Shown here: positions 2,507 to 39,853 of the stretch, one piece after another | Numbering within the stretch: position 1 is the stretch's first letter | How the letters are laid out: the number at the start of each line of letters is the position of its first letter | Assembly: GCA_017454745.1 (NCBI GenBank) | Contig: JAFTCL010000083.1 | Coordinates: 31,924 to 95,923, forward strand | Length of the DNA stretch: 64,000 nt | Source of the DNA: Kiritimatiellia bacterium | Lineage (GTDB): Bacteria; Verrucomicrobiota; Kiritimatiellia; RFP12; UBA1067 | Direction of reading: 5' to 3' | The notes under the pieces: generated by a model | What the model saw: the letters and a program-made list of their open reading frames with translations, nothing else | The model's database searches: none | Told to the model about the DNA's origin: nothing | Translations under genes and position numbers: made by a program

Positions 2507-2678
2507 AACAAAATACTACTGTTCAAGACAGTGATATGATGCCATTTCCTGCCACCGTTTAGCAAGAACAAAAGTCAATATTTGCCAAAACGGGAATGAA
2601 TATGGGCGGGATGATCCGGTATGGCGGATTATCTAATTCATTGCGTACCATAAATTATCGTCATTACGGTTTAACACA

Positions 2679-2707
2679 TTGCGTTTAGAGCCGATTTTTG
2701 GTATGAT
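2679..2707 (+). promoter_or_regulatory. Putative sigma70 promoter
   Basis: TTGCGT-N17-TATGAT with TG extended -10, upstream of the EEP gene. Confidence 0.5.
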
Positions 2708-2718
2708 ATTATTGTTTT

Positions 2719-19900: not shown

Positions 19901-22900
19901 TATTCGCTCATCGAGGCTGGACAGTTGACAATGGCGAACGGTGCCGCGTTCTCGCTGACATCGTCCGTGGTCTTTGGCGAGAATCGCGCGGGGGTGTTGG
20001 AGTTGACCGATACCGGGTTGAAACTCCGGGTTTATCCAACCGGTAACCCGATTTACAAACGTAATAACACTTTGTCTGGCAACTACATTTTCTGGCAACC
20101 GCAGGGCAACCATTACTGGCAGACCAAGTCCAACTGGTCGTCCGGTGCCGTGCCGGGGTTTGATGCCAACCAGCGGATTATCTTCACCGTGGCGGATTCT
20201 GTGGAAATCAACGCATATTCGAAGTGGACCAGCGGCAACGCCTATCTGTGTTTCTACAATGGCACGAAGACTCCGGTGGAGTTCTCTGCCAGCAGCGGGG
20301 ATTTCGGTCTTGACACCACTTCGCAGGGCGCGTCCGGATGGGCAATTGTGCGCGGTTATGGCGTGGGCGGCTACTTGCGGGTAAACAACGGCACTTACAA
20401 CGTGTCTTACGTTTATCCCAACGGCAATTCGGACGAGAGCGAATTTTCCTATGCCCGTTTCGAATTGCTCGGCGGGTCATTAACCGGTACCAAATCGTTC
20501 CTGAATTGTAATTTCGATTTGTCGCGTTCCGACGTGTTGATCGATGGTTGTAACGTCAAGTTTACCAATGACTACAACTCAAATATCAATGCATTCACCA
20601 AACAAGTGTTCAGGTTGGTTTCCGGTTCGCTGTCGGTCAACAACTTCCAGTTGGGCGCGGGAAACTATAGTATGTTTGACGGCGAGATGTCGGGCGGCGA
20701 GCTTACTTGCGCAGGAAACTTCTCCTTTAACGGCGCTAATCCCGATGCGGCGAAATTTGTATTAAAGGGCGGTCGGCTGATCACTGACACTATCATGCGA
20801 TCCAACTCCAAGGCGGTGTTTCTGATTGACGGCGGTACGTTGTCGCCATACGGCAACGCCGACGGATGGCTCTATTCCGCGAACTTCCTTACCGTCACTA
20901 AAGGCGGCACGGTGTTAGCTGATACCGACGGCCACAATGTGAGGTGGATGGCTACGGTTGCCGATGACGAGGGCGGATATGATTTCAGTCTCAGCAAACG
21001 CGGGAACGGCACGCTTACCTTCAATGCCGACCAGTTGTTCACCGGTACTTTGGCGGTTGATTCAGGCACTCTGGCTACGGTACACTCGCTGTCTGCCGGA
21101 GAGATTACCGTGGCTTCCGGCGCATCGTTCTCGGTGGCTAATGCCGCTATTAATACGTTGACCCTTCCGTCCATCACATTGGCGCCCGGAGCGGTTTTGG
21201 AGTTTGACGTCAACCCTGATGGTTGCGATGTGCTTGCTTTCACGTCCATAGACATCACATCGGCCTCGGCGGAACATCCGGTGTATATCGACGTTTCGCT
21301 GTCCGGCATGGCGACCTTGGATGATGACACATCCTACACCTTGATTTCCCGCGGCGTGACCGATGCCTCTAAATTTGAGTTGCGCGGCGTGGCGGGATCG
21401 CTTTCGGTTAGGAACGGCGCGTTGATAATGACCAAGAGCGCCGCCACCTCCAACGAGTGGAGCGGATTGGCAAACGACGGCGGCAAGTGGTCTACCGGCG
21501 GCAACTGGCGTAACGGAGAGCCGCCTGTCAGCGGCGGCAGCGCGGTTTTCAATACTTCAGCAGGAACTACACTGTTTGATATTACGGGGCTGGCTTTGAG
21601 CGAAATGTTTTTCGGCGAGGATGCCGGCGCGTTTGTGCACACCGGAGATGATTCGCTTACGATTTATACCTCCATCACCAACCTTTCCAATTACGCGCAG
21701 GATATAAAAATGCCGGTGACGCTGGGAGTGGACGGGTTAGGGTTCTCGGTTTACTCCGCTGGAGACCTGATTATCACCAATACCATTACCCCGGCTTTAA
21801 AAACTCTAGTGAAAGACGGTGGCGGCACTTTGCTGATAAACGACAACGCCATTGCTTGCCTGTCCAGATTGGATATTAATTCCGGAACTGTGAAACTGAA
21901 TGGCCGCACCGGAACGGTTCTTTCAGCAAATGATGAGGGCGGGGAGATTCACATTGCCGACGGAGCAGGTCTGGACATCAACCACGCCCCGGCCGCCAGC
22001 GGCATCGCATTGGCGTCTGATGAGGTCACTCACGGCAAGGTGATATATTTCGAGGGCAATGGCCCAGACGGCAACGGAGCACTCTACAACTCCAACAACA
22101 ACACCACATGGACCGGCTATTTCAGCCATTTGGTCCTTACCGGCGATGCCAAGGTTGGCGGCGGGCACATGTCGTTGCGGACGGTTGCAAATTCCGCGTT
22201 GAACGACAATGTGATCGAAGGGCCTTATGCTTTGGACATAGCGAATCAAGTTGACGGGTTGGGCTTCACCCAGGTGGCGGTTAATTTTGATCTAAAGCGA
22301 GAGGATATCACCGGGAAGACCCAGTTGGAGGGTGCTCAGACCGGCGTCATTGATGAGGGTGTTCATGTGAAAAACGGCGGAAATGTGGTTCTCTACGGTA
22401 CCACGCTTCCGGCTGGCATTCCGGTAACGGTGGACGACAATGCCACCGGTGCGTTCTCGCTGGGCTCCGGAACCTCGTACATCCAGTCGGCGTTTACCGT
22501 AGGGGGTGATGCGACGGCGGCGTTCAGTGCCAACAACACCGCCTACTTGACGGGATCGGTTACAAACAATGGGTTGATCTCTTACACGGGAACAGGAAAC
22601 ATCTACTTTGATTGCGTTCCGGTTGTCGGCGGTACCTACAAGAACACCGCCGGTTCGCTTTGGTTCACCCCGGCGGTTGATTCGCCGGAAAGCCGGATTA
22701 CCGTAGACTCTTCTTCAACATTGGTGTTTGGCGCCAACAGCGGTTCGGGCGCGTTACCCCGGTTCGGCGCGATTTCGGCAACCGCATCGAAGAACGTTTA
22801 TTTCCGTCCGTGCGCTTCGGTGGCACTTGAGAATGATCTGTTCGACGATGTGGTCAACAAGTCCCGTTCGTCCAACGGTACGGTTTACATTCAGCATTCC

Positions 22901-25225: not shown

Positions 25226-25238
25226 TTCCAAAAATGTT

Positions 25239-25267
25239 GGGAGAATCCGGGATGCCCGGATTCTCCC
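25239..25267 (+). terminator. Stem-loop (terminator or mRNA-stabilising hairpin)
   Basis: 13-bp perfect stem GGGAGAATCCGGG-atg-CCCGGATTCTCCC; no strong U-tract. Confidence 0.55.
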
Positions 25268-25280
25268 GAAGGTTGTCGGT

Positions 25281-25865
25281 GTGTTTAAAGATAATACGCG
25301 CTCAAAACCGGAGCATCGGCTGTTAACGTTGGCTTGGATCTTTTTTTACATTTCTTCGGTCACCCTGGGCGGGGGAATGGCGATGTTACCGGTTATGCAA
25401 AGGGAATTCGTCGAAAAGCGAGGTTGGCTGACCGACGATGAAATGGTTGACGTGGTGGCGGTGGTGCAATCGCTGCCGGGAACGATCGCGGTTAACATGG
25501 CGGTATTGCTGGGCTACCGGATTTGTGGTTTTCCCGGAGCGGTTGTGTCGGCGTTCGCATCGGTAGTGGTGCCGTTTGCGGCCATTGTGTTTCTGGCTGC
25601 CGGACGTTCGTTGTTGGCTGATTCGCCGACTCTCGACCATATTTTCCTTGGCGTTCGCGCAGGGGTGTCGGCGCTGATTCTGCTCTCTGCCGTCAAACTG
25701 TCTAAAAGCGTGTTAAAGAAGCCTTTGGCATGGTTTCTGGGCGCGGCCAGTTTTATCGCTTGCGTGATATTTGAAATCGATATGACGCTGGTGATTATGG
25801 CTGGGTTGGCGGTAGGGTTGGCGTTGCTGGCGGTAAATGCGTTCCGTCGGGGGGTGAAACAATGA
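25281..25865 (+). CDS. chrA: Short-chain chromate transporter, first subunit
   Basis: TLGGGMAMLP, KRGWLTDDE and QSLPGTIAVN; probable GTG start at 25281. Confidence 0.88.
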   Translation: MFKDNTRSKPEHRLLTLAWIFFYISSVTLGGGMAMLPVMQREFVEKRGWLTDDEMVDVVAVVQSLPGTIAVNMAVLLGYRICGFPGAVVSAFASVVVPFAAIVFLAAGRSLLADSPTLDHIFLGVRAGVSALILLSAVKLSKSVLKKPLAWFLGAASFIACVIFEIDMTLVIMAGLAVGLALLAVNAFRRGVKQ

Positions 25866-26446
25866 GTCTGTTGCAGTTGTATCTGCTGTTTGCGAAAGTG
25901 TCAACGCTGACCTTTGGCGGCGGTTATGCGATGATTCCGTTGTTTCAGGATGAGATTGTGGTAAAGCACGCATATATGGACGCGCCAGAATTCGCCAATC
26001 TGGTAGCACTGGCACAGGTCACACCGGGGCCGTTAGGGTTGAACGCCGCTACGTTTGTGGGGATGAATCAAGCCGGGATCCCCGGCGCGTTGTGCGCAAC
26101 GCTGGGGATGGTGACACCGTCATTTTTGTTTACTGTAGCCGCCGCAATTTTTTTGCGGCGAATGGCGAAATCGAAAAACCTTGGTACGGTGCTTTCCGGT
26201 ATCCGTCCTTGCGTACTGGGAATCATTGCGGCGGCAGTGGTGTTCTTTGCCGAGACCTCGGTGCTTACCTGCAAGTTACGGGAACTGCTGCATAACCCTG
26301 CCAGAGGTATCTGCTGGCAGGGTGCGGTTGTTTTCGCGGTGGTGCTGGCCGTACAGTTGCGGTGGAAGCGGCTCAACGTGGTGTGGCTGCTGGCAATCTC
26401 TGCCGTGCTGGGGTGGCTGCTGTTCCTTTGTTCGCGCAACTGCTAA
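25862..26446 (+). CDS. chrA: Short-chain chromate transporter, second subunit
   Basis: TFGGGYAMIP and AQVTPGPLGLNAATFVG; ATGA overlap with the upstream gene. Confidence 0.9.
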   Translation: MSLLQLYLLFAKVSTLTFGGGYAMIPLFQDEIVVKHAYMDAPEFANLVALAQVTPGPLGLNAATFVGMNQAGIPGALCATLGMVTPSFLFTVAAAIFLRRMAKSKNLGTVLSGIRPCVLGIIAAAVVFFAETSVLTCKLRELLHNPARGICWQGAVVFAVVLAVQLRWKRLNVVWLLAISAVLGWLLFLCSRNC

Positions 26447-27615
26447 AGATCGCGGGTCAGTTCCCAGGTTTTCACCAGCATCCGCGGAATGTGGAACGGA
26501 CCTTTGAAGAGGTTGCCCTTTGCGGGTTGCGCCACTGTGCCGTCCCGATGGAGGTAACCGTACCATTCGGGGTGTTTCAGGTCTTTGAAATGCGCCCACG
26601 TCCAATCGCTGACTAGCTGGTGCATCTTGCGGTATTTGGGCTTGCGGGTCAAGCGGTAGGCGTAAGCCGAAGCAATGATAGCCTCACAGTGCGGCCACCA
26701 GAATTTCATATCCTGCTCGTAGCACTGAGGCGGCAGATTCCGGCAATCCTTGAAGGAAACGATGCCGCCGAATTGTTTGTCCCAACCCCAAGCCCACGAC
26801 CAATCCAGTATTTGCAGCGCGGTGGAGAGTAGTTTCTGATCGTTGCGGGCCGTGGCCACCTCCATTAAAAACCAGGCGGTTTCAATGCAGTGGCCGGGAT
26901 TGATCACCCGTCCGGCGAGAGTGTCGATGAACTCGCCGTTCGGGCCGACCGTCTCCAGCAGTGCCTTGAATTCGGGATGGATGAAGTAACGGGTCAAGGA
27001 ATCGATGGACTCGTCAATCTGCCGATCCAACAACGGGTCGTCCGAAATCTGCTTGAGCACATTTGCCACGTTGATGAGAATCATTGTCAGCGAGTGCCCT
27101 TGGGCGGCAAATGCCGGTTCGTATTTTGCCGGCATCCATTTGTTAGGGTGCGCGGTGAATTTCCGGATTCGCTTGAACAGGTTGACGGCTTTTCTGCCCC
27201 ATTTACGGTCGCCGCTGGCCAACGAATATTCCGCATAGGCAAGCGCGGCGAAACACTCGGAAAAAACGTAACGGCGTTTTCTGAGGCCGATGCCGTCGGC
27301 GGTGACCTCGAAAAACGCGCGTCCGTCTTGGTCGAAACAATGTTCGTCAAGAAATTCGCAGCAACTGCGACTTGCGACCAAATATTCCGGATTCTTTTCC
27401 AGCCGGTTGTAGGCATATGCGCAAATCCAGCCGAACCGGCCTTGGAACCAAACGGATTTAGTAGTGTCCATTAACGATCCGTCGCGGTTTAGACAGGTAT
27501 AGACGCCACCGTGCGAACGATCCCATCCGTATTTCAGCCAGAACGGCATGACGTTGTCAAGAAACTCCGTCTTATAGACCAAATTCCATTTATGCCAATA
27601 GGGGGACTGTTTCAT
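26443..27615 (-). CDS. N-acylglucosamine 2-epimerase (AGE family; Bacteroides-type NanE)
   Basis: KSVWFQGR, INPGHCIE, MKFWWPHCE, EWYGYL and KGPFHIPR; downstream of nanA. Confidence 0.92.
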   Translation of the reverse strand: MKQSPYWHKWNLVYKTEFLDNVMPFWLKYGWDRSHGGVYTCLNRDGSLMDTTKSVWFQGRFGWICAYAYNRLEKNPEYLVASRSCCEFLDEHCFDQDGRAFFEVTADGIGLRKRRYVFSECFAALAYAEYSLASGDRKWGRKAVNLFKRIRKFTAHPNKWMPAKYEPAFAAQGHSLTMILINVANVLKQISDDPLLDRQIDESIDSLTRYFIHPEFKALLETVGPNGEFIDTLAGRVINPGHCIETAWFLMEVATARNDQKLLSTALQILDWSWAWGWDKQFGGIVSFKDCRNLPPQCYEQDMKFWWPHCEAIIASAYAYRLTRKPKYRKMHQLVSDWTWAHFKDLKHPEWYGYLHRDGTVAQPAKGNLFKGPFHIPRMLVKTWELTRDL

Positions 27616-27618
27616 TGT

Positions 27619-28515
27619 TTACCTATATCCGATTTTTTTCAGTCTGGAGACGCAATCTGCCTTGGCGGCTTCGGAAAGCGCGACGTTCGGGCGACGGACG
27701 TCGCCTAAGTCCAGATCCCAAACTTTCATCATCGCCTTACCTCCGGCGACACCGCCGTACTGCACCAGAATGTCCACAATGTCGCAAACCTTCTTCATGC
27801 CGGTCTGCGCCTTTTTAAGGTCACCCTTTTTGACCGCGTCCCAAATTTTGTAGTAAACCCCGGCGGCATAATTGTAGGTCGAGCCGATGGCAGATTGCGC
27901 CCCGCACGCCACCGCGCCGGCGAACCATTCATCGATGCCCCAGGTGATATCGTACTTCCCGCCGCAGGCGCGAAGGCAACGCTGATACATATAGAGGTCG
28001 GCGTAGTTGAATTTGATTCCGGCGAGATTGCCGATCTTGCCGTCCGCCTTTTCAAGGAACGCCTGCATATCGAAGTTAACCCCGGACATTCCGGTGTGGT
28101 AGTAGTAAAACGGCAGTTTTGTGCTGGTCTGCAACGCTTCGTTCAGGTAGTCAATCAGAGCATCGATAGAACCCGGCTTGAAGAAATTCGGCGGAACGAT
28201 GGAGGTGGCGTCCATGCCGCATTCTACCGCGTGGGCGCCGAGTTCCTGCACGTCCGGGATTGCTAACGCGCCGATGTGCGCTATCAGGTACAGTTTGCCT
28301 TTGGCGGCTGCCGTCCAGGCGTCGAACAGGGCCTTGCGTTCGGCTACGGAACAGCAGATGCCCTCTCCGGTGGTGCCGGAAATGTAAACGCCGGTAACAT
28401 TCTGCCGCACCAGCAGGTCGGCTTGCTTGGATACCAGCGCGAGATTGACGCTGCCGTCGGCGTTGAACGGCGTGTGGGCAGCCGCGATTAATCCCTTAAG
28501 TTTCTTGATGGCCAT
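27619..28515 (-). CDS. nanA: N-acetylneuraminate lyase (DHDPS family)
   Basis: GTTGEG, FYYYH, GIKF (Schiff-base Lys) and IGSTYNY; context with AGE epimerase and SSS transporter. Confidence 0.85.
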   Translation of the reverse strand: MAIKKLKGLIAAAHTPFNADGSVNLALVSKQADLLVRQNVTGVYISGTTGEGICCSVAERKALFDAWTAAAKGKLYLIAHIGALAIPDVQELGAHAVECGMDATSIVPPNFFKPGSIDALIDYLNEALQTSTKLPFYYYHTGMSGVNFDMQAFLEKADGKIGNLAGIKFNYADLYMYQRCLRACGGKYDITWGIDEWFAGAVACGAQSAIGSTYNYAAGVYYKIWDAVKKGDLKKAQTGMKKVCDIVDILVQYGGVAGGKAMMKVWDLDLGDVRRPNVALSEAAKADCVSRLKKIGYR

Positions 28516-31112
28516 TATTGCTCTCCGGATGGTGTTTGCGGTTTCAGGGTTTTAAGGGTAAGACCGTTCAGGTCATGCCCTTTTTCACGAAAGATGATAC
28601 TGGTGGTCCAGGCCACGGCCACGCATACCGCCAGCCCGATACCGCCCAGAAGGAACGGATGGAACTTGAGTCCGAACACGTTGCAGTGCAGAATTTCGCA
28701 GCTGAAACAGACGAAGTAGTTGGCCGCAAGGCCCAGAACCGCCGCGACACCCTTGATACGCGGCATGAATACGCCCATAAAGAAGAGTCCCGTCAAGCCT
28801 GCCGTCAACATGGCAATGTACTTGTTGAAGTTGTCGAAAAGCGCGCTCGACTCCATACGTGCGAGTGTGAGCGCCGCCATAACGCCCATAATGCCGACTA
28901 CATAGGTGCAGATCTGACCACAACGGATTTGCGTCTTTCCTGGGATGTCGGGTTTGAAGCGCTTGATGAAGTCCGTGACGAGTGCCGTAGAAGCGGAACT
29001 CAGGTTTGCGGACAAGGTCGAGATCGTCGCCGCGAAGACCGCCGCGATTACGAGTCCCGCGAGCCACGGCGGCATCTCCGTTGCCATAAAGGTCGGGAGA
29101 ATCGAATCGCCTTTCGGCATCGTCACGTCCATCGTTTCCGGGTGCGTGTGATAGAACGTAAAGAGGGCCATGCCGATTCCGTAGAACACCACTTGCGCGA
29201 ATACACTCATGCACCCGTTGAACCAGAGTGAACGTTTGGTGGCGTTTTCGTCCGGCGTCGCGATGTAGCGCTGAATAACGCACTGGTCGCTCGTGTAGGA
29301 AGAGAGATTGGAGATGAGGCCCTGAACCGCTACCACCCAGAAGACTGGTTGCGTGAAGAGAAGGCGGAAATCCCACATCGCGGTCTTGTTGTAGGTACTG
29401 GCCACGTTCCAGAAAGTCGAGAAATGCGTACCGTCCGAGCCGGTCTTCATGATTAGGAGTACCAGCACCGACACCGCTCCGCCCATAAGAACGATACCCT
29501 GGACGAAGTCGGACCAGATGACCGCCTCAAGCCCGCCGAGCGAGCAATAAATCATCGTGAGAACGCCACAGATGAGGATGCAGGCGTCGATGGATATTCC
29601 CGTCACGGCGTTGAGCGCGATTGCGGGGAGCAGCGTCACCACAGCGACGCGGCAGACCATGAAGACAACGAACGCAGCAGAACCGAAGAGCCGCACGCCG
29701 AGATTGAAGCGCTTTTCCAGGTATTCGTAAGCGCTCGTAATCCCAAGCCGGCAGAAGAACGGCAGATAAAAGTAGATCGCCACAGGTGCCATGCCAATGA
29801 TGAAGAACGCCATCACGAAGTACCGCCAATCCTGCAAATACGCCTGCGTCGGAATCGCGATGAAGGTGATCGAGGAGAGCATCGTCGCGAAAATACTCAT
29901 TCCTGCAACATACCACGGAATACGCTTTCCGCCGCGGAAGTAGTCGTTCACATCCTTCTTCTTGCGGATGAAGTACACCGCCATTGCGACCATAAGGAGC
30001 GCATAGACGCCGACGACCGCCCAGGCCGCCGCGCCGAACCGACCGGTTTTCTTGAAGCTCGCGACACTTACCGCATCAGTCCGCATTTTAGGCGCGACCT
30101 CGCCACCCGCGATGAGAATAGTGTATTGTTCGGGAGTTTTGCCGGGGCGAATCGCCGTCGCCGCTCCGCAGCGCGGTTTGTCGCCCGGCGCGATTTTACC
30201 GTATTCGCACCACGCATCCGTCACGCAGTTGTAGGCGAGTACTTTCCTCTGCCAACCGAGCTTCACGGGATTGGTTTCGGTTGAGCCGTTTATCGCGCGG
30301 TCAATCCACCCCTTCTCGCCAAATCCGCCGACCAAGAGGATGTGTTGGTGCCCGCTCGGCAGAAACGCCGCGCCGATCGATGTGGTGTGCTCTGGGAGCG
30401 GCGAAATGGCTTTCTTTTTACCCGACGAAATGGTAATGGCGTAGCCATCGGCAAGCGGCAGCTTTGTCTTTACGTCATATCCGCCATATACGACAAGCAG
30501 TTTTTCCTTCTGGTCGCCGTTTTGGATGGCGGCAACCATCTGCTCGCGTGCCGGGTCGGCGATTTCGCTGACAAGCACCCACTCCCCATGCTTTCGAATC
30601 GCCGGATCGGGGTCTAACGCCTTGAGCATTTCGAGAGACCACACCTTCTTCGACGCAACGACATAGACCTTCTCGCCGTCGGCCGCCGCCGCACCCATCG
30701 ACAGCGGCATGTGAAGAGACGGAAGACTTGAGACGCGAGGAGTGCCGTTATCTATAGTAAGCAGAAACGCCTCTGTAAAAACCGTCTTTCCGTCCGTTCC
30801 CCCCGCGCAGAAGATACCCTTTGGTGTCTCGCAACAGACTCCTTCGGCGACGGGATACGGAAGCTCACCGATTTTCTTCCACGTCCCGTCCGGTTCACGG
30901 ACAGTTATTTCCGAGTTATACACCTTCTTCCCGTCAACGAAATCGCTGCCACCAGCGACGACGAACCTCCCGTCCGGCAGAAAACCGTGGAACGGGCGGG
31001 CGACGGTGGCTGGCATAGTCTCCGTCGCTTTCCATTCAATGCGTACCGGAGCCGGAAAAACCGGCCATGACATCGCCACGGCAAAAAAACAGCCTAAAAG
31101 AAATTTTCCCAT
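28515..31112 (-). CDS. Kelch (NanM-like mutarotase) - sodium:solute symporter (SiaT-like) fusion
   Basis: Signal peptide, Kelch repeats (VAGG, CAGG, VYGG, LVGG, IAGGE), then SSS motifs YFRGGKRIPWY, SIFATMLSSITF, SAYEYLEKRF, GGLEAVIWSD and DQCVIQRY. ATG 31112 follows GAGGG. Confidence 0.9.
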   Translation of the reverse strand: MGKFLLGCFFAVAMSWPVFPAPVRIEWKATETMPATVARPFHGFLPDGRFVVAGGSDFVDGKKVYNSEITVREPDGTWKKIGELPYPVAEGVCCETPKGIFCAGGTDGKTVFTEAFLLTIDNGTPRVSSLPSLHMPLSMGAAAADGEKVYVVASKKVWSLEMLKALDPDPAIRKHGEWVLVSEIADPAREQMVAAIQNGDQKEKLLVVYGGYDVKTKLPLADGYAITISSGKKKAISPLPEHTTSIGAAFLPSGHQHILLVGGFGEKGWIDRAINGSTETNPVKLGWQRKVLAYNCVTDAWCEYGKIAPGDKPRCGAATAIRPGKTPEQYTILIAGGEVAPKMRTDAVSVASFKKTGRFGAAAWAVVGVYALLMVAMAVYFIRKKKDVNDYFRGGKRIPWYVAGMSIFATMLSSITFIAIPTQAYLQDWRYFVMAFFIIGMAPVAIYFYLPFFCRLGITSAYEYLEKRFNLGVRLFGSAAFVVFMVCRVAVVTLLPAIALNAVTGISIDACILICGVLTMIYCSLGGLEAVIWSDFVQGIVLMGGAVSVLVLLIMKTGSDGTHFSTFWNVASTYNKTAMWDFRLLFTQPVFWVVAVQGLISNLSSYTSDQCVIQRYIATPDENATKRSLWFNGCMSVFAQVVFYGIGMALFTFYHTHPETMDVTMPKGDSILPTFMATEMPPWLAGLVIAAVFAATISTLSANLSSASTALVTDFIKRFKPDIPGKTQIRCGQICTYVVGIMGVMAALTLARMESSALFDNFNKYIAMLTAGLTGLFFMGVFMPRIKGVAAVLGLAANYFVCFSCEILHCNVFGLKFHPFLLGGIGLAVCVAVAWTTSIIFREKGHDLNGLTLKTLKPQTPSGEQ

Positions 31113-31160
31113 TCCGTTCCCTCGGAGAAACCAAAAACAAACCAACATTTACTATTTACA

Positions 31161-32237: not shown

Positions 32238-32939
32238 TTCGTTCACCAGCCCGAGAGATGTCGCTGAAGAGCCGGCGCTTGCCGGTTCGTCGGGGGAGAC
32301 GTCGTTCGATGCCGACACAGTATCGGCGGTGAACCGGCCCTGGCGGAAAACGCGCTTGCCCAAGCGGCACTAAAGGACCACGCCGTAAAGATCGCCGAGC
32401 AGTGGCGGCAGTCCGAATCCGTGCCGCAAGCGGCACTAATCTTCAAGATGTTGTGCTGTTCGGGGCTTTTGGCCATACTTTGCGCTTTTTTCGGCGAGAT
32501 TCGCAATTCGTCGTCGCTGGTTTTCTTTTCGACGGTTCTCATTGCCCCGACGGTGGAGGAATTCGGCAAGATTCTGATTCCTCTGATGACTCTGGAAAAA
32601 CGCCCTTGGCGGTTTTCCAGTGACAACGCCATTATGGCGGTATGCCTGATGTCGGGGTTCACCTTTGCCTTTATCGAGAACCTGCTATATTTATTAATTT
32701 ATATCCCTAAAGACCAGCTTACCGCCGGGATCGTCGCTTTTCGGTTGACGGCCTGCACCGCGCTGCACATGGCCGGTACTGCAATATCGGGGTACGGGTT
32801 GTCCCGTTGCTGGCGGCGTGCGCATGACGCGCAAACCGAGGCCGATTTAGTCCCGGCGATGCGCTGGATTATCGCCGCCGTGGTTTTACATGGAATTTTC
32901 AACGCCGGTGCGATAGTTTACTCAATTATAAAACATTGA
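32230..32939 (+). pseudogene. PrsW-family glutamic intramembrane protease with apparent -1 frameshift near 32292-32318 (or an intact gene with a sequencing indel)
   Basis: The C-terminal frame has EEFGK, FAFIEN, ALH and LHGIFN. The RBS-preceded ATG 32230 is in a different frame. An EPALA motif occurs once in each frame. Confidence 0.7.
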
Positions 32940-33102
32940 GCCAGTTGCAAAACCCCTCTGATTCCGCAAGGTCATGGTTTGCTTTCGCTGCTGGGAGAAA
33001 AGGAGTCTTGGAGTTTCGGAGATTTTTTGAAGTTTTCTCCAGATCTCCAAAACTCCTAGCCTCCAAGTAGCGAAAGCAAGAAGAAGTTTTGCAATTGCTT
33101 CA
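32937..33102. mobile_element. MITE/REP-like nested inverted-repeat element
   Basis: Three nested IR pairs: 32942-32953/33086-33097, 32979-32996/33062-33079 and 33001-33022/33036-33057. Confidence 0.6.
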
Positions 33103-33117
33103 TTTTTTTATTTGGCC

Positions 33118-33147
33118 TTGACAATCCCAGCACAATCGGTATACCAT
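33118..33147 (+). promoter_or_regulatory. Putative sigma70 promoter
   Basis: TTGACA-N18-TACCAT upstream of the large CDS. Confidence 0.5.
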
Positions 33148-33179
33148 TTAACATAATGAGTAATTAAGTAAGAGTGTCT

Positions 33180-36100
33180 ATGAAAAATGTGGTTAGGTTT
33201 TGTTTTTGTGTGGTTTTATTTACAGTTGCGCCGGCGGCATTTGCATCGGCGCAGTCGCTTGACGGCTTTATAGAATCCTTCCGCGCCGCGCAGGTGTCGG
33301 CGCCCATGGTGCGCGACGGCGCCAGGCTCACCGTGCCCGCCGGGGTCGTCCGCGCCGACGTGGGCGACGGCTCTTGGCCGCAGGACGCCCTCTCCATTCC
33401 CGCCGTGAGGCTCCCCGACGGCACCGCCGCCCGACGGTTTCTGGTCTGGCAGGACCCGGGGACCGGCGCGGTCATGATGTCCGGCGGCGACGGCGCGACC
33501 CCCTTCGCCATCGCCGACGCGGGGATCGGGCAGGCCGACCTTCTGGCCGCCCGCTACGGTACCTCCGACCCGTCGCGCCTCCGGTCGCTGGCCGCCCGCT
33601 GCGCCGGCAGGCTGTCGCCGTCGCGAGTGGTTTGGTCGGGCTTTATCTCCGGCGAGTATCCCGCCCCGCTTCGTTCACCCCAGAACCCTTTGGGCGACCC
33701 GCGGAGCCTGCCCTACGACACCGTGCCGGGCGGATTGGCGACACCGGACGGCTTTGAGTCCGCGCTGGTGCTGGCCGACACGGCCGGCGGCTTCCGGCAG
33801 TTCAAGTTCCCGTCAGGCGCATCTCTCCCCCAGATTGTCAGGCTCCCGTATTTCACCGTTTTCGTGGGGCTGGAAGGTCCCGGGCGCGTGTCCGGCTTCG
33901 GGCACGACCCGGACTGTTTCGACCCCTGCTGCGAGCCGGACGGCAATCCGCGGTTCGGCTGGATTTCCGCCCCTTCCAAGCCCGTCGGGGTTATCAAGGC
34001 CGCCGCAAGCGCCGGCAGCACGGTTTACCTGCTGGGTTCCAACGGCAGAGTCACCCAGTGGGGCGGACGGTTGGAGGCCGACGAGATGGGGACGCTCCCG
34101 TCAATGACCGGGGTGGTCGACGTTGTCGCCGGCTGCGGTTACGGGGCGGCTCTGCTGGACACCGGCCGGGTGCGGGCGTGGAGCGGCTCGCTCGACGGAT
34201 TCAACGGCACGCCGTCCGGTGTCACGGGCGCAACCGCCATAGCGGGCGGCGAGGACTTCTGCGTCGCGCTAACCTCCTCCGGGACCGCGAAATGCTGGGG
34301 GCCGTTCACCGCGCCGCCGTCCGCCACCGGCCTGGTCGCCGTGGCCGCCGGCTATTACGCGGTCGGGCTGCGCCAGAACGGCTCGGTCATGGCGTGGGAC
34401 CCGTGGGATGGGACCGCTATGCCGGTCCCCGGTATAACCGGTGCCTCGGTAATCGGTTGTGGCGGCGGAACCGGGGCCGCGCTCACGCCCGACGGTGTGG
34501 CGTTGTGGGACATTGCGACGGGCGTGGCACTTGACGTGCCGAGCGGGACCCGCGGCTTCGCCGCCGACCGGTCCGGCGTTTGGCTGTTCATGGGGGACGG
34601 CTCCGTGAGGCTTTACGGGGAAGACGTGCCGTATCTCGGCGCGATGCCGCAGTGGACGGCCGCCGACGGCTGCCGGGCCCTGGCCGCCTCCGAAATGTGG
34701 GGGGAGGGCGCTGTATACACGGTGACCGTGCTGGCCCTGCGCGGCGCGGCGGGCACAATCAACTCCGACGCCGACTGCGACGGCGCGCCGCTGGCCTCGG
34801 AACGGCTCGCGGGTTCCGACCCGGCCGACCCGGACACCGACGGTGACGGGATTCCAGACGGCGTGGAGATGGGGATGGCCCCGACACCGCTGTTCTGGCG
34901 CGGCGGGACGTCGTCGTTCCTGCCCGGCTTCCCGCCGGCGGTGTCGGCCCGCTCGACCGCCGGGCTGTCCGGGGCGGCGCTCTGCGGCGGCGGGGTGTGG
35001 CTGTGCGGCTCTTCCGGGCTGGAGGAGCTGCTGCCGCCCCCGTCGGTTACCGGCCTGGCCGCCACTGCCACCGGGACGCTCGGCGGCCTGGCCGCTGACG
35101 GCGGGTTTCTGGCGTGGCGGGCCGACGGCGCGTCGGCCCTGCTGCCGGGCCTCGGCCTGGCGGCGGTCTCCGGCGGCTACCGCCACTTCCTCGGGATCAA
35201 CGGCTCCGGGCGGCTCCTGTGCCTGGAGGAGACCCCGGGACAGGCGGTGCTGACCAACCGCACTGGCTCAACATTCGTCAGCTCCCTGTCTTCGTCGGTG
35301 AGCGCCGTGGCGGTGTCCGCCGGCGACGGGATCGACGCGGCGTTCCTCTCTGACGGCAAACTCAGGCTCGGCAGCGCGCTCGCCGCAAGCCAGTACTCCG
35401 ACCGCTCTGTGTGCGCCACGCAGATGCTGGACCAGGTCATCGCCGGGCCGGCGAGGTCCGCCGCGCTGCTCAAGACCAACGGTGCATATACGGTTTACCG
35501 CCGATCGTCCGACACCTCGACATCCTTCACCCCGCAAGCCTCCTCCGGTCCGCGTGGCGCGTTTTTAGGGCTACTCGGCGGCAGGGTCGCCGTCGTCCTG
35601 ACCAACGGGGTGGTGAAATCGTGCGCGAACGGGTCGACATCATGGTCCACGGCCTTCACCAACGCCGCGCTAACGTCGGCCCTGGCCGTGGACTGGACCT
35701 CCAACGCGGTCGCGGCGGTCAGCGCGAGCGGCGGCGTGTCCGCGGTTTGGGGAGCCGCGGCCATCCCGGCGGTCCCGTGGTGGTGGTCGTGGCGGGACGT
35801 GTCGCTCGACCCCGCCGACCCCTCGTCCGGCGCGGCGCTGCTCGCGGTGTCCACCAGCCCGACCGACCCGGACAGCGACGGCGACGGCTTCCCGGACGGC
35901 TGGGAGCTCGCAAACGGCTTTGACCCGCTAGACCCCGATTCCGCCCTGCCGGACTCTGACTCGGACGGCATACCAGACGAGTGGGAGGCCTTTTACGGCC
36001 TAGACCCCTCCAGCGCTGCGGACGCCGCCCTCGACCCTGACGCCGACGGGCTGACCAATTCCCAGGAATTCATCAATGGCACTAATCCAATTGACAGGGA

Positions 36101-38867
36101 TACGGATGTCGACGGTTACTCGGACGGCTGGGAGCTGGCAAACGGTTTTGACCCGCTAGACCCCGATTCCGCCCTGCCGGACTCCGACTCGGACGGCATG
36201 CCGGACGAGTGGGAGGTCTTTTACGGGTTCAATCCTGCCGACCCGTTGGACGCGGCTTTAGATCCGGATGAAGACGGCCTTTGCAATGCCGATGAGTACG
36301 ATGCTAATACAAATCCCTTTAACTCCGATACTGACGGAGATGGAATACCGGATGGCTGGGAATGTCTAAATGGTCTGAACCCGATTGACTGGTCAGATGT
36401 TTGCGGCGATCCGGATGGAGACGGGATACCAAATGTCTATGAGTGGTTTTACGACCGAAATCCGCTGGTAGCCGATGCGGAAAGTGTCAATAAAATTTGT
36501 GTCGGGGGAACGAATGCGGTGCAAACTCTTGAGGCGGCCTTGAGAGCGAGCAGCGCGTATTCTGTAATCGAAATCGCACCCGGTGTGTACTCCGGTAACG
36601 GGTGGTCAATGCAATGGCTTCCGTCGCATCCGGTGTTGATTACCACTCAGGACGGTGGGCGCGACCGCCGCGTTATAATCCGTCTCGGACAAAATTGCTT
36701 TGCCGGCATATTGCTTGACGAAAGGCAGACGGTTCACACCGTTATTCAGGGGCTTTGCATGGAGTTGTGCGCAACCAATGGGGTGCAGTCAGCGTTCTTT
36801 TGCGGGGGCAACGCGCCAACTACGGGACAGCCGGCATCAGGCATGTTCCGCAACATTTATGTCAAAATGAAGAATCCAAATGTGTATTATTACGGATGGC
36901 ATTTCCGCCATTTTGAGACAAATGAAGTGGTTATAGCGGGTTGCGTGATAGACGCTGGGGGCACCACAATAGCGCGGGGCATTCGCGCTGTTGACGGCCC
37001 CCCGATGAGTGTGGAAAATTGCACCTTCGTCAATTTCCCCCCGGACGCAAACGGAAACAGCGTGGGCATCCAATACGAATCGACTTCCCAAAACTATGGC
37101 GGGGCGCCAGACCCGATACCGCTTGAAGTGGTCAACTGTATTTTCGATGAATCATTCGCCAACGCCTACGCGATTGCGCCGTGCACCAACGGAGTGGCGT
37201 ATGATGTCACAGTACTGAATTGCATTGTCCCCTCTGAAAGCAGCATTTACGCCGGCTCGGTGAGCGGGTTGCTGGTTACCAACGCTTGCGTGTCGGCGTC
37301 CGGACACCTGCCGATCGACTCTCCGGCCAGAGGGATGGGTGTCCCGAGCCTGTTTTCACCGCTGGACATTGACGGCCAGTTGCGCGGGGATTCGCTCGAT
37401 ATCGGCGCAGACCGGTATTCCGCGGAACCGAAAGATACGGACGGAGACGGAGTCTCCGACTCCGACGAGGATTGGCTATACGGCAGCAACCCATTTTTCC
37501 CGGACACTGACGGTGACAACATGCCAGATGGAACAGAAATCCAGGACGGGACAAATCCTTCCGATTCTTCAAGCTACTGTTACAACTTGTCGGCAGAAGT
37601 TACAAGCTCGTTCAATTTGTTCCCGGAACTCGCCGTTGCTGTGTTTAACCAGTCATACAGCACGAACTCACCTATATCAACCGTCTTTCGCCCGGAACTA
37701 ACCGCCACCAACGTCTTTTACCCGAAACCAACCGCCACCAATTTCAATTTCGGGCATATCGTGCACTTGTCCTCAACAACGCCGCACGGCATCTGCCTAT
37801 GGTTGGACGCAAACACTAACGGTCTTTGCGATGTCGGGGAGTCCGCTCTTTGGGAGACAATAAAGCCAAAGGAACACGCAACCTCATTTAGTCTAAAAGT
37901 GCCAATGGTTTGGGAGGATGCGGACAGAGACAAGATTCTTGATCGCTGGGAACTTGCCAACGGTTTATGCCCGACAAACGCCGCCGACGCCTGGCAGGAC
38001 TGGGACGGCGACGGTCTCATCAACTTACACGAGTTTTGGACGAAGTGCAATCCTTCGGTTTACGACGGCACCAACTATGTACTTTCCGCTTTCGCCAAAT
38101 CGATTGACTCTAGAATTGCCGGCACGCAAACTGCCAACGCTTGGTACCGTTTTGTAAATTACCCCGACACAGAGCTGAACACAAACTGTTGGGCGTACGG
38201 CGCCGATTTTTCTTCGACCAGCGTTAAACAAAACTCTGCCGATCCGCATGCCTTTAATGTGACAGCCGTAAGTAAGCGCCATGTTCTCGGGGCAACGCAT
38301 TATAACTATCATGCAAGCTTGGGGACCGTTTATTACTTCTTGGGGACAAACAATGTGGTGTACACGCGTACCCTTGTTGCCACGAACTACATACCAAATG
38401 TGGATGTTATGGTAGGGCTCCTCGACGAAGATTTGCCCGACAGCGTTGTGCCGGCAAAGATTTTGCCCGAAAACTGGTATGAGTATATTGGGCCAGGATA
38501 CGGTTTGCCTACGGTGGTGTTTAACAAGTTTAGGCAGGCCGTCATAATGGATTTAAATTATTTGCCGCAGGAAAAAACGGTTTGTGCAAAAGGATTATTC
38601 CCTCAAAATGCCGACCGATTGTTTTACGCTGCGAGATTTATTGATGGTGATTCCAGCAATCCCCGATATTTGCTTTCGGGGAATGAGACGGTTTTGTTGC
38701 ATTTAATGTGGAGAGGCGAAGGCGGAGAAGGAACTTTTTTAACATTGCTAAAAAATGATATTCAGGCGCACATGAATCTCCTAATGCCGGGATATCAGTT
38801 GGAGGAATTTGACCTTTCGGCATGGGACAAACTGCCGGAATTTTGCGAACCGGACACAGGAGAATAA
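33180..38867 (+). CDS. Large secreted protein: RCC1/BLIP-II-like repeats, TSP3-like Ca-binding repeats, beta-helix, C-terminal trypsin-like protease
   Basis: Signal peptide; IAGGEDFCVALTSSGTAKCWG-type repeats; many DxDxDGxPDxWE repeats; DIDGQLRG..DIGAD motif; RHVLGATH, DVMVGLLD and DGDSSNP triad motifs. Confidence 0.8.
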   Translation: MKNVVRFCFCVVLFTVAPAAFASAQSLDGFIESFRAAQVSAPMVRDGARLTVPAGVVRADVGDGSWPQDALSIPAVRLPDGTAARRFLVWQDPGTGAVMMSGGDGATPFAIADAGIGQADLLAARYGTSDPSRLRSLAARCAGRLSPSRVVWSGFISGEYPAPLRSPQNPLGDPRSLPYDTVPGGLATPDGFESALVLADTAGGFRQFKFPSGASLPQIVRLPYFTVFVGLEGPGRVSGFGHDPDCFDPCCEPDGNPRFGWISAPSKPVGVIKAAASAGSTVYLLGSNGRVTQWGGRLEADEMGTLPSMTGVVDVVAGCGYGAALLDTGRVRAWSGSLDGFNGTPSGVTGATAIAGGEDFCVALTSSGTAKCWGPFTAPPSATGLVAVAAGYYAVGLRQNGSVMAWDPWDGTAMPVPGITGASVIGCGGGTGAALTPDGVALWDIATGVALDVPSGTRGFAADRSGVWLFMGDGSVRLYGEDVPYLGAMPQWTAADGCRALAASEMWGEGAVYTVTVLALRGAAGTINSDADCDGAPLASERLAGSDPADPDTDGDGIPDGVEMGMAPTPLFWRGGTSSFLPGFPPAVSARSTAGLSGAALCGGGVWLCGSSGLEELLPPPSVTGLAATATGTLGGLAADGGFLAWRADGASALLPGLGLAAVSGGYRHFLGINGSGRLLCLEETPGQAVLTNRTGSTFVSSLSSSVSAVAVSAGDGIDAAFLSDGKLRLGSALAASQYSDRSVCATQMLDQVIAGPARSAALLKTNGAYTVYRRSSDTSTSFTPQASSGPRGAFLGLLGGRVAVVLTNGVVKSCANGSTSWSTAFTNAALTSALAVDWTSNAVAAVSASGGVSAVWGAAAIPAVPWWWSWRDVSLDPADPSSGAALLAVSTSPTDPDSDGDGFPDGWELANGFDPLDPDSALPDSDSDGIPDEWEAFYGLDPSSAADAALDPDADGLTNSQEFINGTNPIDRDTDVDGYSDGWELANGFDPLDPDSALPDSDSDGMPDEWEVFYGFNPADPLDAALDPDEDGLCNADEYDANTNPFNSDTDGDGIPDGWECLNGLNPIDWSDVCGDPDGDGIPNVYEWFYDRNPLVADAESVNKICVGGTNAVQTLEAALRASSAYSVIEIAPGVYSGNGWSMQWLPSHPVLITTQDGGRDRRVIIRLGQNCFAGILLDERQTVHTVIQGLCMELCATNGVQSAFFCGGNAPTTGQPASGMFRNIYVKMKNPNVYYYGWHFRHFETNEVVIAGCVIDAGGTTIARGIRAVDGPPMSVENCTFVNFPPDANGNSVGIQYESTSQNYGGAPDPIPLEVVNCIFDESFANAYAIAPCTNGVAYDVTVLNCIVPSESSIYAGSVSGLLVTNACVSASGHLPIDSPARGMGVPSLFSPLDIDGQLRGDSLDIGADRYSAEPKDTDGDGVSDSDEDWLYGSNPFFPDTDGDNMPDGTEIQDGTNPSDSSSYCYNLSAEVTSSFNLFPELAVAVFNQSYSTNSPISTVFRPELTATNVFYPKPTATNFNFGHIVHLSSTTPHGICLWLDANTNGLCDVGESALWETIKPKEHATSFSLKVPMVWEDADRDKILDRWELANGLCPTNAADAWQDWDGDGLINLHEFWTKCNPSVYDGTNYVLSAFAKSIDSRIAGTQTANAWYRFVNYPDTELNTNCWAYGADFSSTSVKQNSADPHAFNVTAVSKRHVLGATHYNYHASLGTVYYFLGTNNVVYTRTLVATNYIPNVDVMVGLLDEDLPDSVVPAKILPENWYEYIGPGYGLPTVVFNKFRQAVIMDLNYLPQEKTVCAKGLFPQNADRLFYAARFIDGDSSNPRYLLSGNETVLLHLMWRGEGGEGTFLTLLKNDIQAHMNLLMPGYQLEEFDLSAWDKLPEFCEPDTGE
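35893..36226 (+). repeat. Intragenic 106-bp direct repeat (35893-35998 and 36121-36226)
   Basis: Copies are 228 bp apart with about 6 mismatches by eye; both encode DGWELANGFDPLDPDSALPDSDSDGxPDEWExFYG. Confidence 0.9.
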
Positions 38868-38880
38868 GGAGAAAAAGGAA

Positions 38881-39540
38881 ATGAAAAGATTATGCTTGAC
38901 GCTTGTGTTTCTATCGTTGTCAGTTATCGGTGCCAACGCAACATCTGTACTATGGGATGCTTTTGGCATTACTTATGTAGATGGAGAAACTACAACTATT
39001 GGCTACCATAACGGTAGTTTGGGGAGGGGAATCTGGCCGGAAGTGGGGTTGACGGTTGACAAAAGTAAGGTTAATATTACAATATCCCCCAATGATGTTG
39101 TCGTTGCCAACGCATCTTGCAATTGGCTTGTCGCTTCCGTTGGCGATGTCGTTTCGGAATCGACCACCAGACACCTCGACCCCAGCCAATATTTTCTGCA
39201 TATCACACTTGATGATGATTTTACAGACATGCACGCATATGACGGGTGGTTTATCACTGGTGATCCCATAACAGTAAGGCGGAACAGCATTTTTTACCTT
39301 ATGTTAGCCGCAGGGGATGTACACAGTATCTATGCTGATGAGAAGCAGAATGTGTATTATGGATGGGTGGAGGTTACGGTTTCGCCAATGGGGGAAATTG
39401 GCGTCGGCTCGTCCTGCATCAATCTGGACGGCGATCCTATAATCGTGGGGTATGATCTTGTCCCCGAGCCGGGGGTAACTGGCCTGTTGCTGTTCGGCCT
39501 TGCCGCGTTGGTTTTCCCCAGAAGGAAAATATTGCGCTGA
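38881..39540 (+). CDS. PEP-CTERM sorting-domain protein
   Basis: Signal peptide MKRLCLTLVFLSLSVIGANA; C-terminus VPEP-GVTGLLLFGLAALVF-PRRKILR; 13 nt after the large gene. Confidence 0.88.
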   Translation: MKRLCLTLVFLSLSVIGANATSVLWDAFGITYVDGETTTIGYHNGSLGRGIWPEVGLTVDKSKVNITISPNDVVVANASCNWLVASVGDVVSESTTRHLDPSQYFLHITLDDDFTDMHAYDGWFITGDPITVRRNSIFYLMLAAGDVHSIYADEKQNVYYGWVEVTVSPMGEIGVGSSCINLDGDPIIVGYDLVPEPGVTGLLLFGLAALVFPRRKILR

Positions 39541-39604: not shown

Positions 39605-39721
39605 CCTGTAGCCGGTCGTTTCGCACACCCCGTCGAGAATCCGCCCGCGCTTGCCGGGACTCGATTCCGCATACATACTGCGTCTTGCCCCAACGTATTG
39701 ATTTGTTGCCATTCGTGACAT
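39605..39721 (-). pseudogene. Truncated transposase N-terminus
   Basis: AGGAGG RBS 7 nt before the ATG. MSRMATNQYVGARRSMYAESSPGKRGRILDGVCETTGYR resembles the KxRILDExxxxTGYxRKYAxRLL N-terminus of integrase-core (rve) transposases; similarity stops after GYR. Confidence 0.65.
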
Positions 39722-39853
39722 GTTCATGCCTCCTATGATACCATAAGTGTCCAATATTTGACGAACGGGTACGCCAAAATTCTACCGCCGCTATCAGAAG
39801 AGTGTCCATTATTACGACAAACTGCTGTTTCCTGTATTATGTTTTTTTCGCAT

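Follow-up and report, generated by a model that had tools for sequence, protein, structure and literature searches.

A predicted C-terminal S1-fold serine protease domain and its recurrent PEP-CTERM partner at a mosaic locus of a Kiritimatiellia bacterium

The locus described here combines a fold, a sorting signal and repeats that are each known. Polymorphic toxin-immunity cassettes were reportedly set out by Zhang, Aravind and colleagues in 2012. In the umbrella toxins, a trypsin-like UmbA domain docks a separately encoded partner, the N-terminus of which enters the cleft, and UmbA is catalytically dead (available portion of PMC11062931). For PEP-CTERM proteins, a median count of 8 is stated in the available portion of Haft et al. 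2006 (PMC1569441), equal to the 8 open reading frames (ORFs) of this type in the present genome. The locus was found in a window, i.e. the whole stretch of DNA that was analysed, of 64,000 nucleotides (nt) from a Kiritimatiellia bacterium (assembly GCA_017454745.1, contig JAFTCL010000083.1, positions 31,924 to 95,923 of the forward strand). It consists of the gene of a giant secreted protein, hereafter the giant, which ends in a predicted serine protease domain (the tip), and of a small gene encoding a PEP-CTERM protein (the partner) directly behind it. Coordinates are those of the window, and residues of the giant were counted from the GTG start. The genome is called G000, and G001 is that of a sister species of the same genus. 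Atlas neighbours gave Verrucomicrobiota as a lead for the phylum.

The C-terminal 272 aa of the giant were modelled with AlphaFold2 from a 77-sequence alignment. The model has the two-beta-barrel trypsin fold (pLDDT, the predicted local distance difference test, 93.4; predicted template modelling score 0.91), and the predicted fold includes a conserved helical N-terminal extension. The run without alignment reached a pLDDT of 31.7, and the alignment-based model was used. A trypsin-like terminal domain had been claimed in a preliminary description of this DNA, where any other fold was named beforehand as speaking against it, and the trypsin fold is what was obtained. The catalytic codons given there (His 38298, Asp 38403 and Ser 38652) are exact and fall on conserved columns of the family. 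Neither Pfam (E ≤ 10) nor NCBIfam (E ≤ 0.01) gave a family match for the tip, the curated S1 models Trypsin and Trypsin_2 included. A phmmer search of the tip against the PDB returned chance-level matches only (e.g. adenovirus fibre, S100). Solved S1 proteases were reached by the family profile only at E 0.18; the His and GDSG motifs were aligned correctly (chymotrypsinogen C).

The family to which the tip belongs is large. An exhaustive profile-free search returned 1,845 representatives (50% clustering) at E ≤ 1e-3, 814 at E ≤ 1e-10 and 57 at E ≤ 1e-30, and conservation and architecture were counted in the best 150. The triad residues H1709, D1744 and S1827 occupy columns that hold His in 142/143, Asp in 149/149 and Ser in 148/149 representatives. 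The complete His-Asp-Ser set was present in 141 of the 143 representatives covering all three columns, and the residue preceding the catalytic Ser was Asp in 148/149. The domain ended at most 30 aa from the C-terminus of the protein in 143/149, and a PEP-CTERM-like tail on the protease itself was found in none (0/150). Among the long members (n = 53), TSP3_bac repeats were present in 41, and TSP3 was the sole Pfam feature in 39. Distribution within the order was patchy (39 of 301 genomes, and none of the domain in G001). As modelled and aligned, the tip is an S1-fold serine protease domain with an intact-looking triad, and it is predicted to be active.

The position of the partner gene was then compared across relatives. 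A partner-family gene lay immediately downstream and on the same strand at 26 of the 37 protease loci with at least 500 nt of downstream sequence (27/39 at a limit of at least 390 nt), and the spacing at positive loci was 0–150 nt. On the upstream side, used as a control, such a gene was found in 1/14; the sole case comes from a tandem array, in which the gene found is paired with the one before it. Four cases were left out of the count as too near a contig edge (L120, L124, the second gene in L008, and L049). Positive loci span 13 genera and 6 families (tally from locus tables), related genomes not being independent samples. Full-length partners accounted for 24 of the 27 downstream matches, the three others being partial (L115, L123 and L126). 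At several loci the partner genes were tandemly duplicated, in 2–3 copies. The protease domain recurs together with homologous PEP-CTERM genes of this family.

Some loci had particular arrangements. In three contigs of G031 (L008, L046 and L047, on C320, C398 and C352), short protease genes of 363–377 aa alternate with 1–3 partner genes. In L103 (G359), a 209-aa C-terminal protease fragment is followed by a partner of its own, as an orphan-like module. In a distant relative (L041:~2514-3280, G261:C122), the protease ORF is directly followed by a 255-aa gene, the N-terminus of which resembles, by eye, those of phage tail-fibre proteins.

In the tail of the partner, a PEP motif is followed by a hydrophobic helix and a cluster of basic residues. 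It passed the TIGR02595 model narrowly (16.5 against a cut-off of 16) and stayed below the cut-off of PF07589 (17.9 against 20.7). The N-terminus is hydrophobic with an A-N-A site (by inspection). An EpsH-type exosortase is encoded in the genome (PF09721, 167.3 bits, G000:C31:62641-63405). The PEP-CTERM assignment made in the preliminary description can be kept as a likely one on this narrow pass and on the presence of the exosortase. The partner had at first the appearance of an orphan, as a word-indexed search gave one 99%-identical fragment only. This was overturned by a hidden Markov model (HMM) built from 11 downstream neighbours with the partner itself left out, on which it scored 56.0 bits in a match covering almost the full length; the seven remaining PEP-CTERM-tailed ORFs of G000 reached 14.7–24.1 bits on the same HMM. 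Among 28 protease-linked partners, the predicted mature N-terminus was Ala in 25, with a Trp four residues further on in 27. No other feature in the N-terminal half of the partners is conserved as well, and the YGW core and PEP tail lie downstream of this mature N-terminus. A chagasin-type inhibitor (I42) was considered as a structural neighbour of the partner and was not used (template modelling score 0.34, below the bar). A complex of the protease domain with mature partner residues 22–193 was predicted with a score of 0.00 in two runs without controls, which is evidence neither way, the partner having perhaps been cut one residue past its mature N-terminus.

PEP-CTERM-tailed ORFs are few in the 3.86-Mb genome (only 8, with C6, C13, C66, C7, C58 and C15 among their contigs). 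All 8 are 158–219 aa long; each begins with a signal peptide, as judged by eye, and the motif at the mature N-terminus ends in Trp. Four of the 7 assessable genes are preceded, at a distance of 4–62 nt, by ORFs of at least 1,482 aa, namely the giants of C6, of C13 (3,107 aa stop to stop), of C66 (at least 3,324 aa) and of the present locus. The other giants that precede a small PEP-CTERM gene in this genome have no protease. The C-terminal ~600 aa of the C6 and C13 giants (C6g and C13g) are 46% identical and their partners 62% identical; the C66 giant and the present giant have different C-termini and different partner types. The type of partner therefore tracks the C-terminal region of the giant.

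Upstream of the tip, the giant is a mosaic (Table 1) encoded by a frame that is open throughout. By inspection, its N-terminus looks like a Sec-type signal peptide and has an A-x-A site around residues 24–26; the giant has no sorting tail of its own. TSP3_bac repeats were detected in it by Pfam at E 4e-29, and 12 D.D.DG motifs were found at residues 554, 900–1079, 1421 and 1609. RCC1_2 repeats were weak yet above the cut-off when the N-terminal segment was scanned alone (24.8 against 22 bits). A contiguous propeller-to-TSP3 ORF was found in G569 (46% identity over query positions 4–364). Most of this had been anticipated: the size of ~1,895 aa holds from the ATG at 33180, the signal peptide is visible, the DxDxDG and RCC1-like repeats are present as claimed, and the 13-nt gap and the 219-aa gene behind it had both been given exactly. 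The claimed beta-helix is a lead only: the language-model neighbours of residues ~1110–1413 are beta-helix families, and Pfam gave no match for this module at E ≤ 10.

We favour, with a probability of roughly 0.45, the reading that the partner is a cognate, exosortase-sorted docking or anchoring receptor which would retain the secreted protease on the surface or in the matrix of the producer. The genes of the giant and of the partner would be co-transcribed. The exosortase of the genome would bring the small protein to the cell surface or the matrix, where it might dock the C-terminal domain of the giant. An active protease would thereby be kept, together with carbohydrate- or protein-binding modules, on the surface of the producer. 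Such a surface protease could plausibly help the producer to feed on glycoproteins of its animal host in the gut, a speculative role suggested by the sialic-acid catabolism genes upstream and by the occurrence of the cassette in animal-gut metagenomes. The same logic may hold for the other giants of this genome that are paired with a small PEP-CTERM protein. Elsewhere, genes of the partner family come after those of alpha-amylase, metallophosphoesterase and polysaccharide-lyase/CBM proteins. Partners found after unrelated enzymes and after non-protease giants point to general docking or anchoring more than to protease-specific immunity, and they weaken the candidate of a partner specific for the protease.

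The polysaccharide-lyase cases were seen at L086 and L087 (G171:C3 and G174:C17), where ~1,300-aa proteins of polysaccharide-lyase / CBM6 / F5_F8-type-C composition are each followed by a PEP-CTERM gene. The latter genes match the C-terminal half of the partner family, and in G174 this arrangement occurs twice in tandem.

Several points weigh against a docking receptor. Eleven of the 37 protease loci are without a partner (4 short stand-alone proteases of 276–311 aa, 2 loci of one genus and 5 from more distant families), and full-length partner-family genes without a protease nearby were found in G266, G033 (two copies) and G032. Of 120 stop-to-stop ORFs of at least 1,200 aa in the genome, some of which may be spurious antisense frames, only 4 have a PEP-CTERM gene downstream. 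Co-transcription is read from only two features, the 13-nt gap and a spacer in which no terminator-like site was found, and the contact between the giant and the partner is something that we infer. The near-invariant triad suggests that the cleft serves catalysis, not passive docking as in UmbA. Finally, contigs of three independent metagenome runs end or diverge at the TSP3 repeat at ~35866–35909, where the GC content of third codon positions (GC3) shifts, so the continuity of head and core rests on the present assembly, on a remnant in G001 and on the propeller-to-TSP3 ORFs of relatives.

Exchange of modules was followed in the sister species and in metagenomes. At a non-syntenic locus of G001, a 629-aa ORF includes residues 2–567 of the giant with 97% identity. 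At the DNA level the identity is 96.9% over 1,754 nt, from 67 nt upstream of the start to 34858. It stops exactly after the first TSP3 motif, and DNA of 42–45% GC with an unrelated 67-aa tail follows. The four small ORFs behind this fusion matched no Pfam family. They are of low GC (232, 125, 156 and 101 aa; L098:8929-10960, G001:C36), the first is lipoprotein-like, and they could be an unrelated tip-plus-partner set. The preliminary description had proposed to look for homologs of the N-terminal half with varying C-termini and downstream genes, and G001 provides one, a single case, with a 97% head, another tail and other small genes. Two further G001 loci reuse only the leader and the first ~65–100 codons. 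A sigma-70-like site lies in this leader at 33118–33147 (10/12 positions, a consensus match only). Beside each 5' head copy in G001 there is a repeat of a few hundred bases (L099:6193-6433, L100:~5951 and L101:~5904), one of them inside the deletion scar at the syntenic locus; this repeat may be a mobile or recombination-associated element.

At the syntenic G001 locus, both flanks are retained at 92–95% identity. Of the cassette there remain the first ~380 nt of the gene, TSP3 scraps corresponding to 36028–36136 and 37964–38096, and the final ~170 nt of the partner gene, with the sorting tail. It follows that the cassette was present in the ancestor of the genus and can be dispensed with. Four metagenome runs were compared across the cassette. 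The tip and the partner were nearly unchanged in independent animal-gut metagenomes, and run X6 has the long form. One contig of run X2 joins 36133 to 37964 with 3 letters between, so that 1,830 nt are skipped and the beta-helix-like module is lost; the G001 remnant shows this junction too. In another X2 contig, 36338 is joined to 37515 and 1,176 nt are missing between them. In both cases the length skipped is a multiple of three, so that the frame is kept. All three junctions, both X2 joints among them, lie inside TSP3 motifs, and a 228-nt tandem duplication in the main TSP3 block fits recombination at repeats. The TSP3 motifs act as in-frame joints, and heads and internal modules are thus gained, lost and swapped between strains and species. 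In an RNA-library run (X20), a few 151-nt contigs matched the tip and the region downstream (e.g. 38394–38544, 0 differences), for which DNA carry-over is possible.

These exchanges also bear on a different explanation, in which the pair is an antagonistic effector with surface immunity: the protease would attack the envelopes of competitors, the displayed PEP-CTERM protein would block it or act as a decoy, and cassettes would move between scaffolds. We consider this rather unlikely. It fits the fact that tip and partner travel together on different N-terminal scaffolds, the tandem partner arrays (2–3 copies), the protease-fragment-plus-partner module of L103, the patchy distribution (39/301 genomes of the order, none in G001), the deletion of the cassette in the sister species, and the G001 head fused to a short low-GC tail with small ORFs of no family behind it. 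The small downstream gene co-varies with the C-terminal domain (26/37 loci) and differs at the G001 head copy, a pattern that does not itself show immunity. The scans with Pfam and NCBIfam returned no toxin-trafficking or pre-toxin domain (TSP3 and weak RCC1 only), and the export signal is of Sec type only. Similar partners follow non-protease giants here and amylase, phosphoesterase and polysaccharide lyases elsewhere, which speaks against this explanation. The core, beta-helix included, is conserved at 36–48% identity across families and is not hypervariable, and the neighbours are housekeeping and sialic-acid catabolism genes.

The conserved N-terminus of the partners raises the question of an enzyme and its substrate or cofactor. 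The protease might mature the PEP-CTERM protein as a subunit of a matrix or fibre, or the free N-terminus of the partner might activate the protease, as in the N-terminal insertion of chymotrypsin-type zymogens. Conservation on both sides is consistent with this, both in the protease (triad, and Asp before the catalytic Ser in 148/149) and in the partner (Ala 25/28, Trp 27/28), and diverged tandem partners could be alternative substrates or subunits. The activation pocket of chymotrypsin-type proteases is typically filled by Ile or Val, unlike the first mature residues of the partners, which are Ala, Thr or Ser. Moreover, partners with the same N-terminal motif follow giants without a protease, so the motif is not protease-specific, and this explanation appears unlikely.

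The two genes could also be mere co-regulated neighbours, encoding exported envelope or matrix components that share an operon by chance and do not interact directly. The 11 of 37 protease loci without a partner, and the occurrence of the partner family beside unrelated genes, would then need no further reason. Chance association accounts poorly for an order kept at a spacing of 0–150 nt in 26/37 loci and 13 genera, against 1/14 upstream. It accounts poorly as well for the small number of PEP-CTERM ORFs (merely 8 in 3.86 Mb) and for a partner type that co-varies with the C-terminal type of the giant. Co-regulation without contact is improbable.

Docking by the partner can be extended to a bolder proposal, to which we give a low probability. 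The exosortase cargo would be a set of trans-anchors, each small PEP-CTERM protein being the cognate receptor for the C-terminal domain of the protein encoded upstream. The free N-terminus of the partner, with its invariant Trp, would enter the cleft or the activation pocket of the protease, which would be tethered and switched on only at the surface of the producer. Combined with the TSP3 splice points, this would amount to plug-and-play surface display in gut Verrucomicrobiota-like bacteria.

The composition of the cassette separates the head from the core. The genome has a mean GC of 57.1%, with a standard deviation of 4.4% in 1-kb windows and a 99.9th percentile of 69.5%. Four 1-kb windows of the head region have a GC of 0.705–0.734, the highest of the genome (0.734) among them, and elsewhere only C27 (0.718) comes within this range. 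These windows lie at C63:65501-67001, about 33578–36077 of the window. GC3 is 0.83–0.94 for residues 1–900 and 0.56–0.67 from ~1000 to the end, with a real break near residue 950 (from 0.83–0.94 to ~0.58); that of the partner is 0.50. The low-GC tip of the preliminary description was recovered in part: GC falls to 0.43–0.47 over the tip and the partner, but GC3 stays at 0.56–0.67, and the low overall GC of the tip is due mainly to second codon positions (0.32), an amino-acid effect. In relatives, the junction from TSP3 to beta-helix (query residues 701–1200), and with it the body of beta-helix and protease, is kept at 36–48% identity in protease-bearing ORFs of 875–1,485 aa (G357, G417, G343, G359, G477, G360, and G029 in two copies). 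What is conserved is therefore a core of TSP3 repeats, beta-helix-like module, protease and partner, to which a lineage-specific head with two propellers has been added; this head is the variable and compositionally deviant part. The variable low-GC tip on a conserved stalk that had been proposed is thus reversed, and the exchangeable tip-plus-partner unit survives only as modular exchange, as in the G001 case, the tip and the partner themselves belonging to the conserved core.

It is very unlikely that head (high GC) and core (lower GC) come from two separate genes with TSP3 repeats, misjoined at a repeat in a metagenome-assembled contig: the GC3 break does coincide with the TSP3 repeat at which the contigs of three independent runs end or diverge, and the head windows hold the highest and most of the top GC values of the genome, but syntenic G001 keeps ~380 nt of the head by the same upstream gene and, in the same order and orientation, the core scraps (36028–36136, 37964–38096) and the 3' end of the partner by the same downstream gene, relatives have contiguous propeller-to-TSP3 ORFs, and the frame is open throughout.

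Both sides of the cassette carry repeats (Table 1). The MITE-like boundary (i.e. like a miniature inverted-repeat transposable element) announced upstream corresponds to an inverted-repeat element with 44-nt inner arms that are 80% complementary and with one partial second copy in the genome (C46:17315-17421). The transposase remnant announced downstream was not recovered at the protein level, since 39608–39829 matched neither Pfam nor NCBIfam; the region is a multi-copy repeat instead, and 69 nt of it are also found in L098 of G001. The genes around the cassette are housekeeping genes and, just upstream, sialic-acid catabolism genes. The sialic-acid utilisation cluster (window 26443–31148, minus strand) contains a GlcNAc 2-epimerase-like gene, a DHDPS/NanA-like lyase gene and the gene of an 877-aa protein in which a NanM-like mutarotase is fused to a sodium:solute symporter; the cluster fits host-glycan foraging. 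A second giant ORF of 2,763 aa was found at window 16934–25225 (plus strand), with an N-terminal GDPD domain (143 bits) and a weak PATR autotransporter-type repeat. A split chromate-transporter pair (25131–25865 and 25862–26446) lies downstream of it, and no PEP-CTERM gene.

Table 1. Features of the cassette and its borders, in window coordinates
Feature	Position	Strand	Details
Mosaic secreted-protein gene	33174..38867	+	1,897 aa from GTG; likely start ATG 33180, giving 1,895 aa
Head module: putative signal peptide and RCC1-like propeller, residues 1-562	33174..34858	+	very high GC3; its end coincides with the first TSP3 motif
Second high-GC repeat region, residues 563-899	34859..35870	+	weak RCC1-like signal
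Main TSP3 block, residues ~900-1089	35871..36440	+	228-nt tandem duplication; GC3 break; population joints 36133, 36338
Beta-helix-like module, residues 1110-1413	36501..37412	+	homologous module in protease-bearing ORFs of relatives; missing from short form
TSP3 repeats (1414-1464, 1578-1625) around unassigned module (1465-1577)	37413..38048	+	TSP3_bac 7.6e-06; joints 37515, 37964
C-terminal S1-fold serine-protease domain (predicted), residues 1626-1897	38049..38864	+	His 38298-38300, Asp 38403-38405, Ser 38652-38654
Intergenic spacer, 13 nt	38868..38880	+	purine-rich ribosome-binding stretch overlapping the stop codon
Partner, 219 aa	38881..39540	+	putative signal peptide; mature N-terminus conserved, including an invariant Trp; YGW core; PEP-CTERM tail (39460-39537)
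5' leader moving with the head module	33100..33173	+	blastn matches to four G001 loci begin at 33100-33107
Nested inverted-repeat element	32928..33111	.	outer arms 32928-32953 / 33086-33111; inner 44-nt arms 32979-33022 / 33036-33079
Multi-copy repeat, ~220 nt	39608..39829	.	copies at contig ends C1:1-161 (91%) and C16:1-112 (89%)

The analysis defines a large serine-protease family without annotation (~1,800 representatives, with a nearly invariant triad) and a recurrent partner family. Together they give a first concrete hypothesis, cognate docking, for the small PEP-CTERM proteins of these bacteria, the function of such cargo having been largely open since 2006. TSP3 repeats are documented to the base as in-frame module-swapping joints in natural animal-gut populations. 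Docking, if true, would be a two-component principle of surface display; immunity, if true, would add a new type of protection from a secreted protease, displayed at the cell surface. In the literature searched (titles and abstracts, and the available portion of PMC1569441), no description was found of the protease family, of its pairing with a small PEP-CTERM family, of the co-variation of a giant with a small PEP-CTERM protein, or of TSP3 in-frame joints in natural populations.

Compared with chymotrypsin-fold S1 peptidases (MEROPS clan PA; e.g. the V8/Esp glutamyl endopeptidases and thrombin), the present domain shares the predicted fold, the His-Asp-Ser order and a GDSG-type motif, the triad being taken from sequence columns. 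It differs from them in the lack of a Pfam or NCBIfam match, in a PDB profile match of only E 0.18, in its helical N-terminal extension and in its position, nearly always C-terminal and usually behind TSP3 repeats. The TSP3 repeats (calcium-binding) in a large exported protein are common to the giant and to CglD and MtsD of myxobacteria (NF033765 and NF047639). The giant is not a member of either, as the two equivalog models were matched through the repeats only and their cut-offs were missed (71.3 against 400 bits and 89.9 against 800 bits).

The partner resembles exosortase cargo as given in the available portion of PMC1569441: its PEP motif is followed by a transmembrane helix and basic residues, its N-terminus looks like a signal peptide, and an EpsH-type exosortase is encoded in the genome. 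The present cargo differs in being made of uniform proteins of ~160–220 aa, of which 4/7 assessable ones lie behind a giant, a pairing that is not mentioned in that portion of the paper. The UmbA-UmbB pair of the umbrella toxins (Zhao et al. 2024, PMC11062931, available portion) is alike in that a trypsin-fold domain of a secreted protein has a separately encoded partner with a notable N-terminal segment, and Umb1 chains were among the Foldseek matches of the tip model (rank 18, E 1.1e-8). Unlike UmbA, the present family keeps its triad. It comes without an ALF-repeat UmbC and without a lectin fusion, in a Gram-negative-type gut bacterium and not in Streptomyces, and docking is proposed for it. 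With polymorphic toxins the locus shares a large modular exported protein, a small downstream gene tracking the C-terminal domain, module exchange, tandem partners and a patchy distribution. It departs from them in having no known trafficking, pre-toxin or toxin domain and a partner predicted to be sorted to the surface; here the C-terminal region is conserved and the head variable, and similar partners stand beside enzymes that are not toxins.

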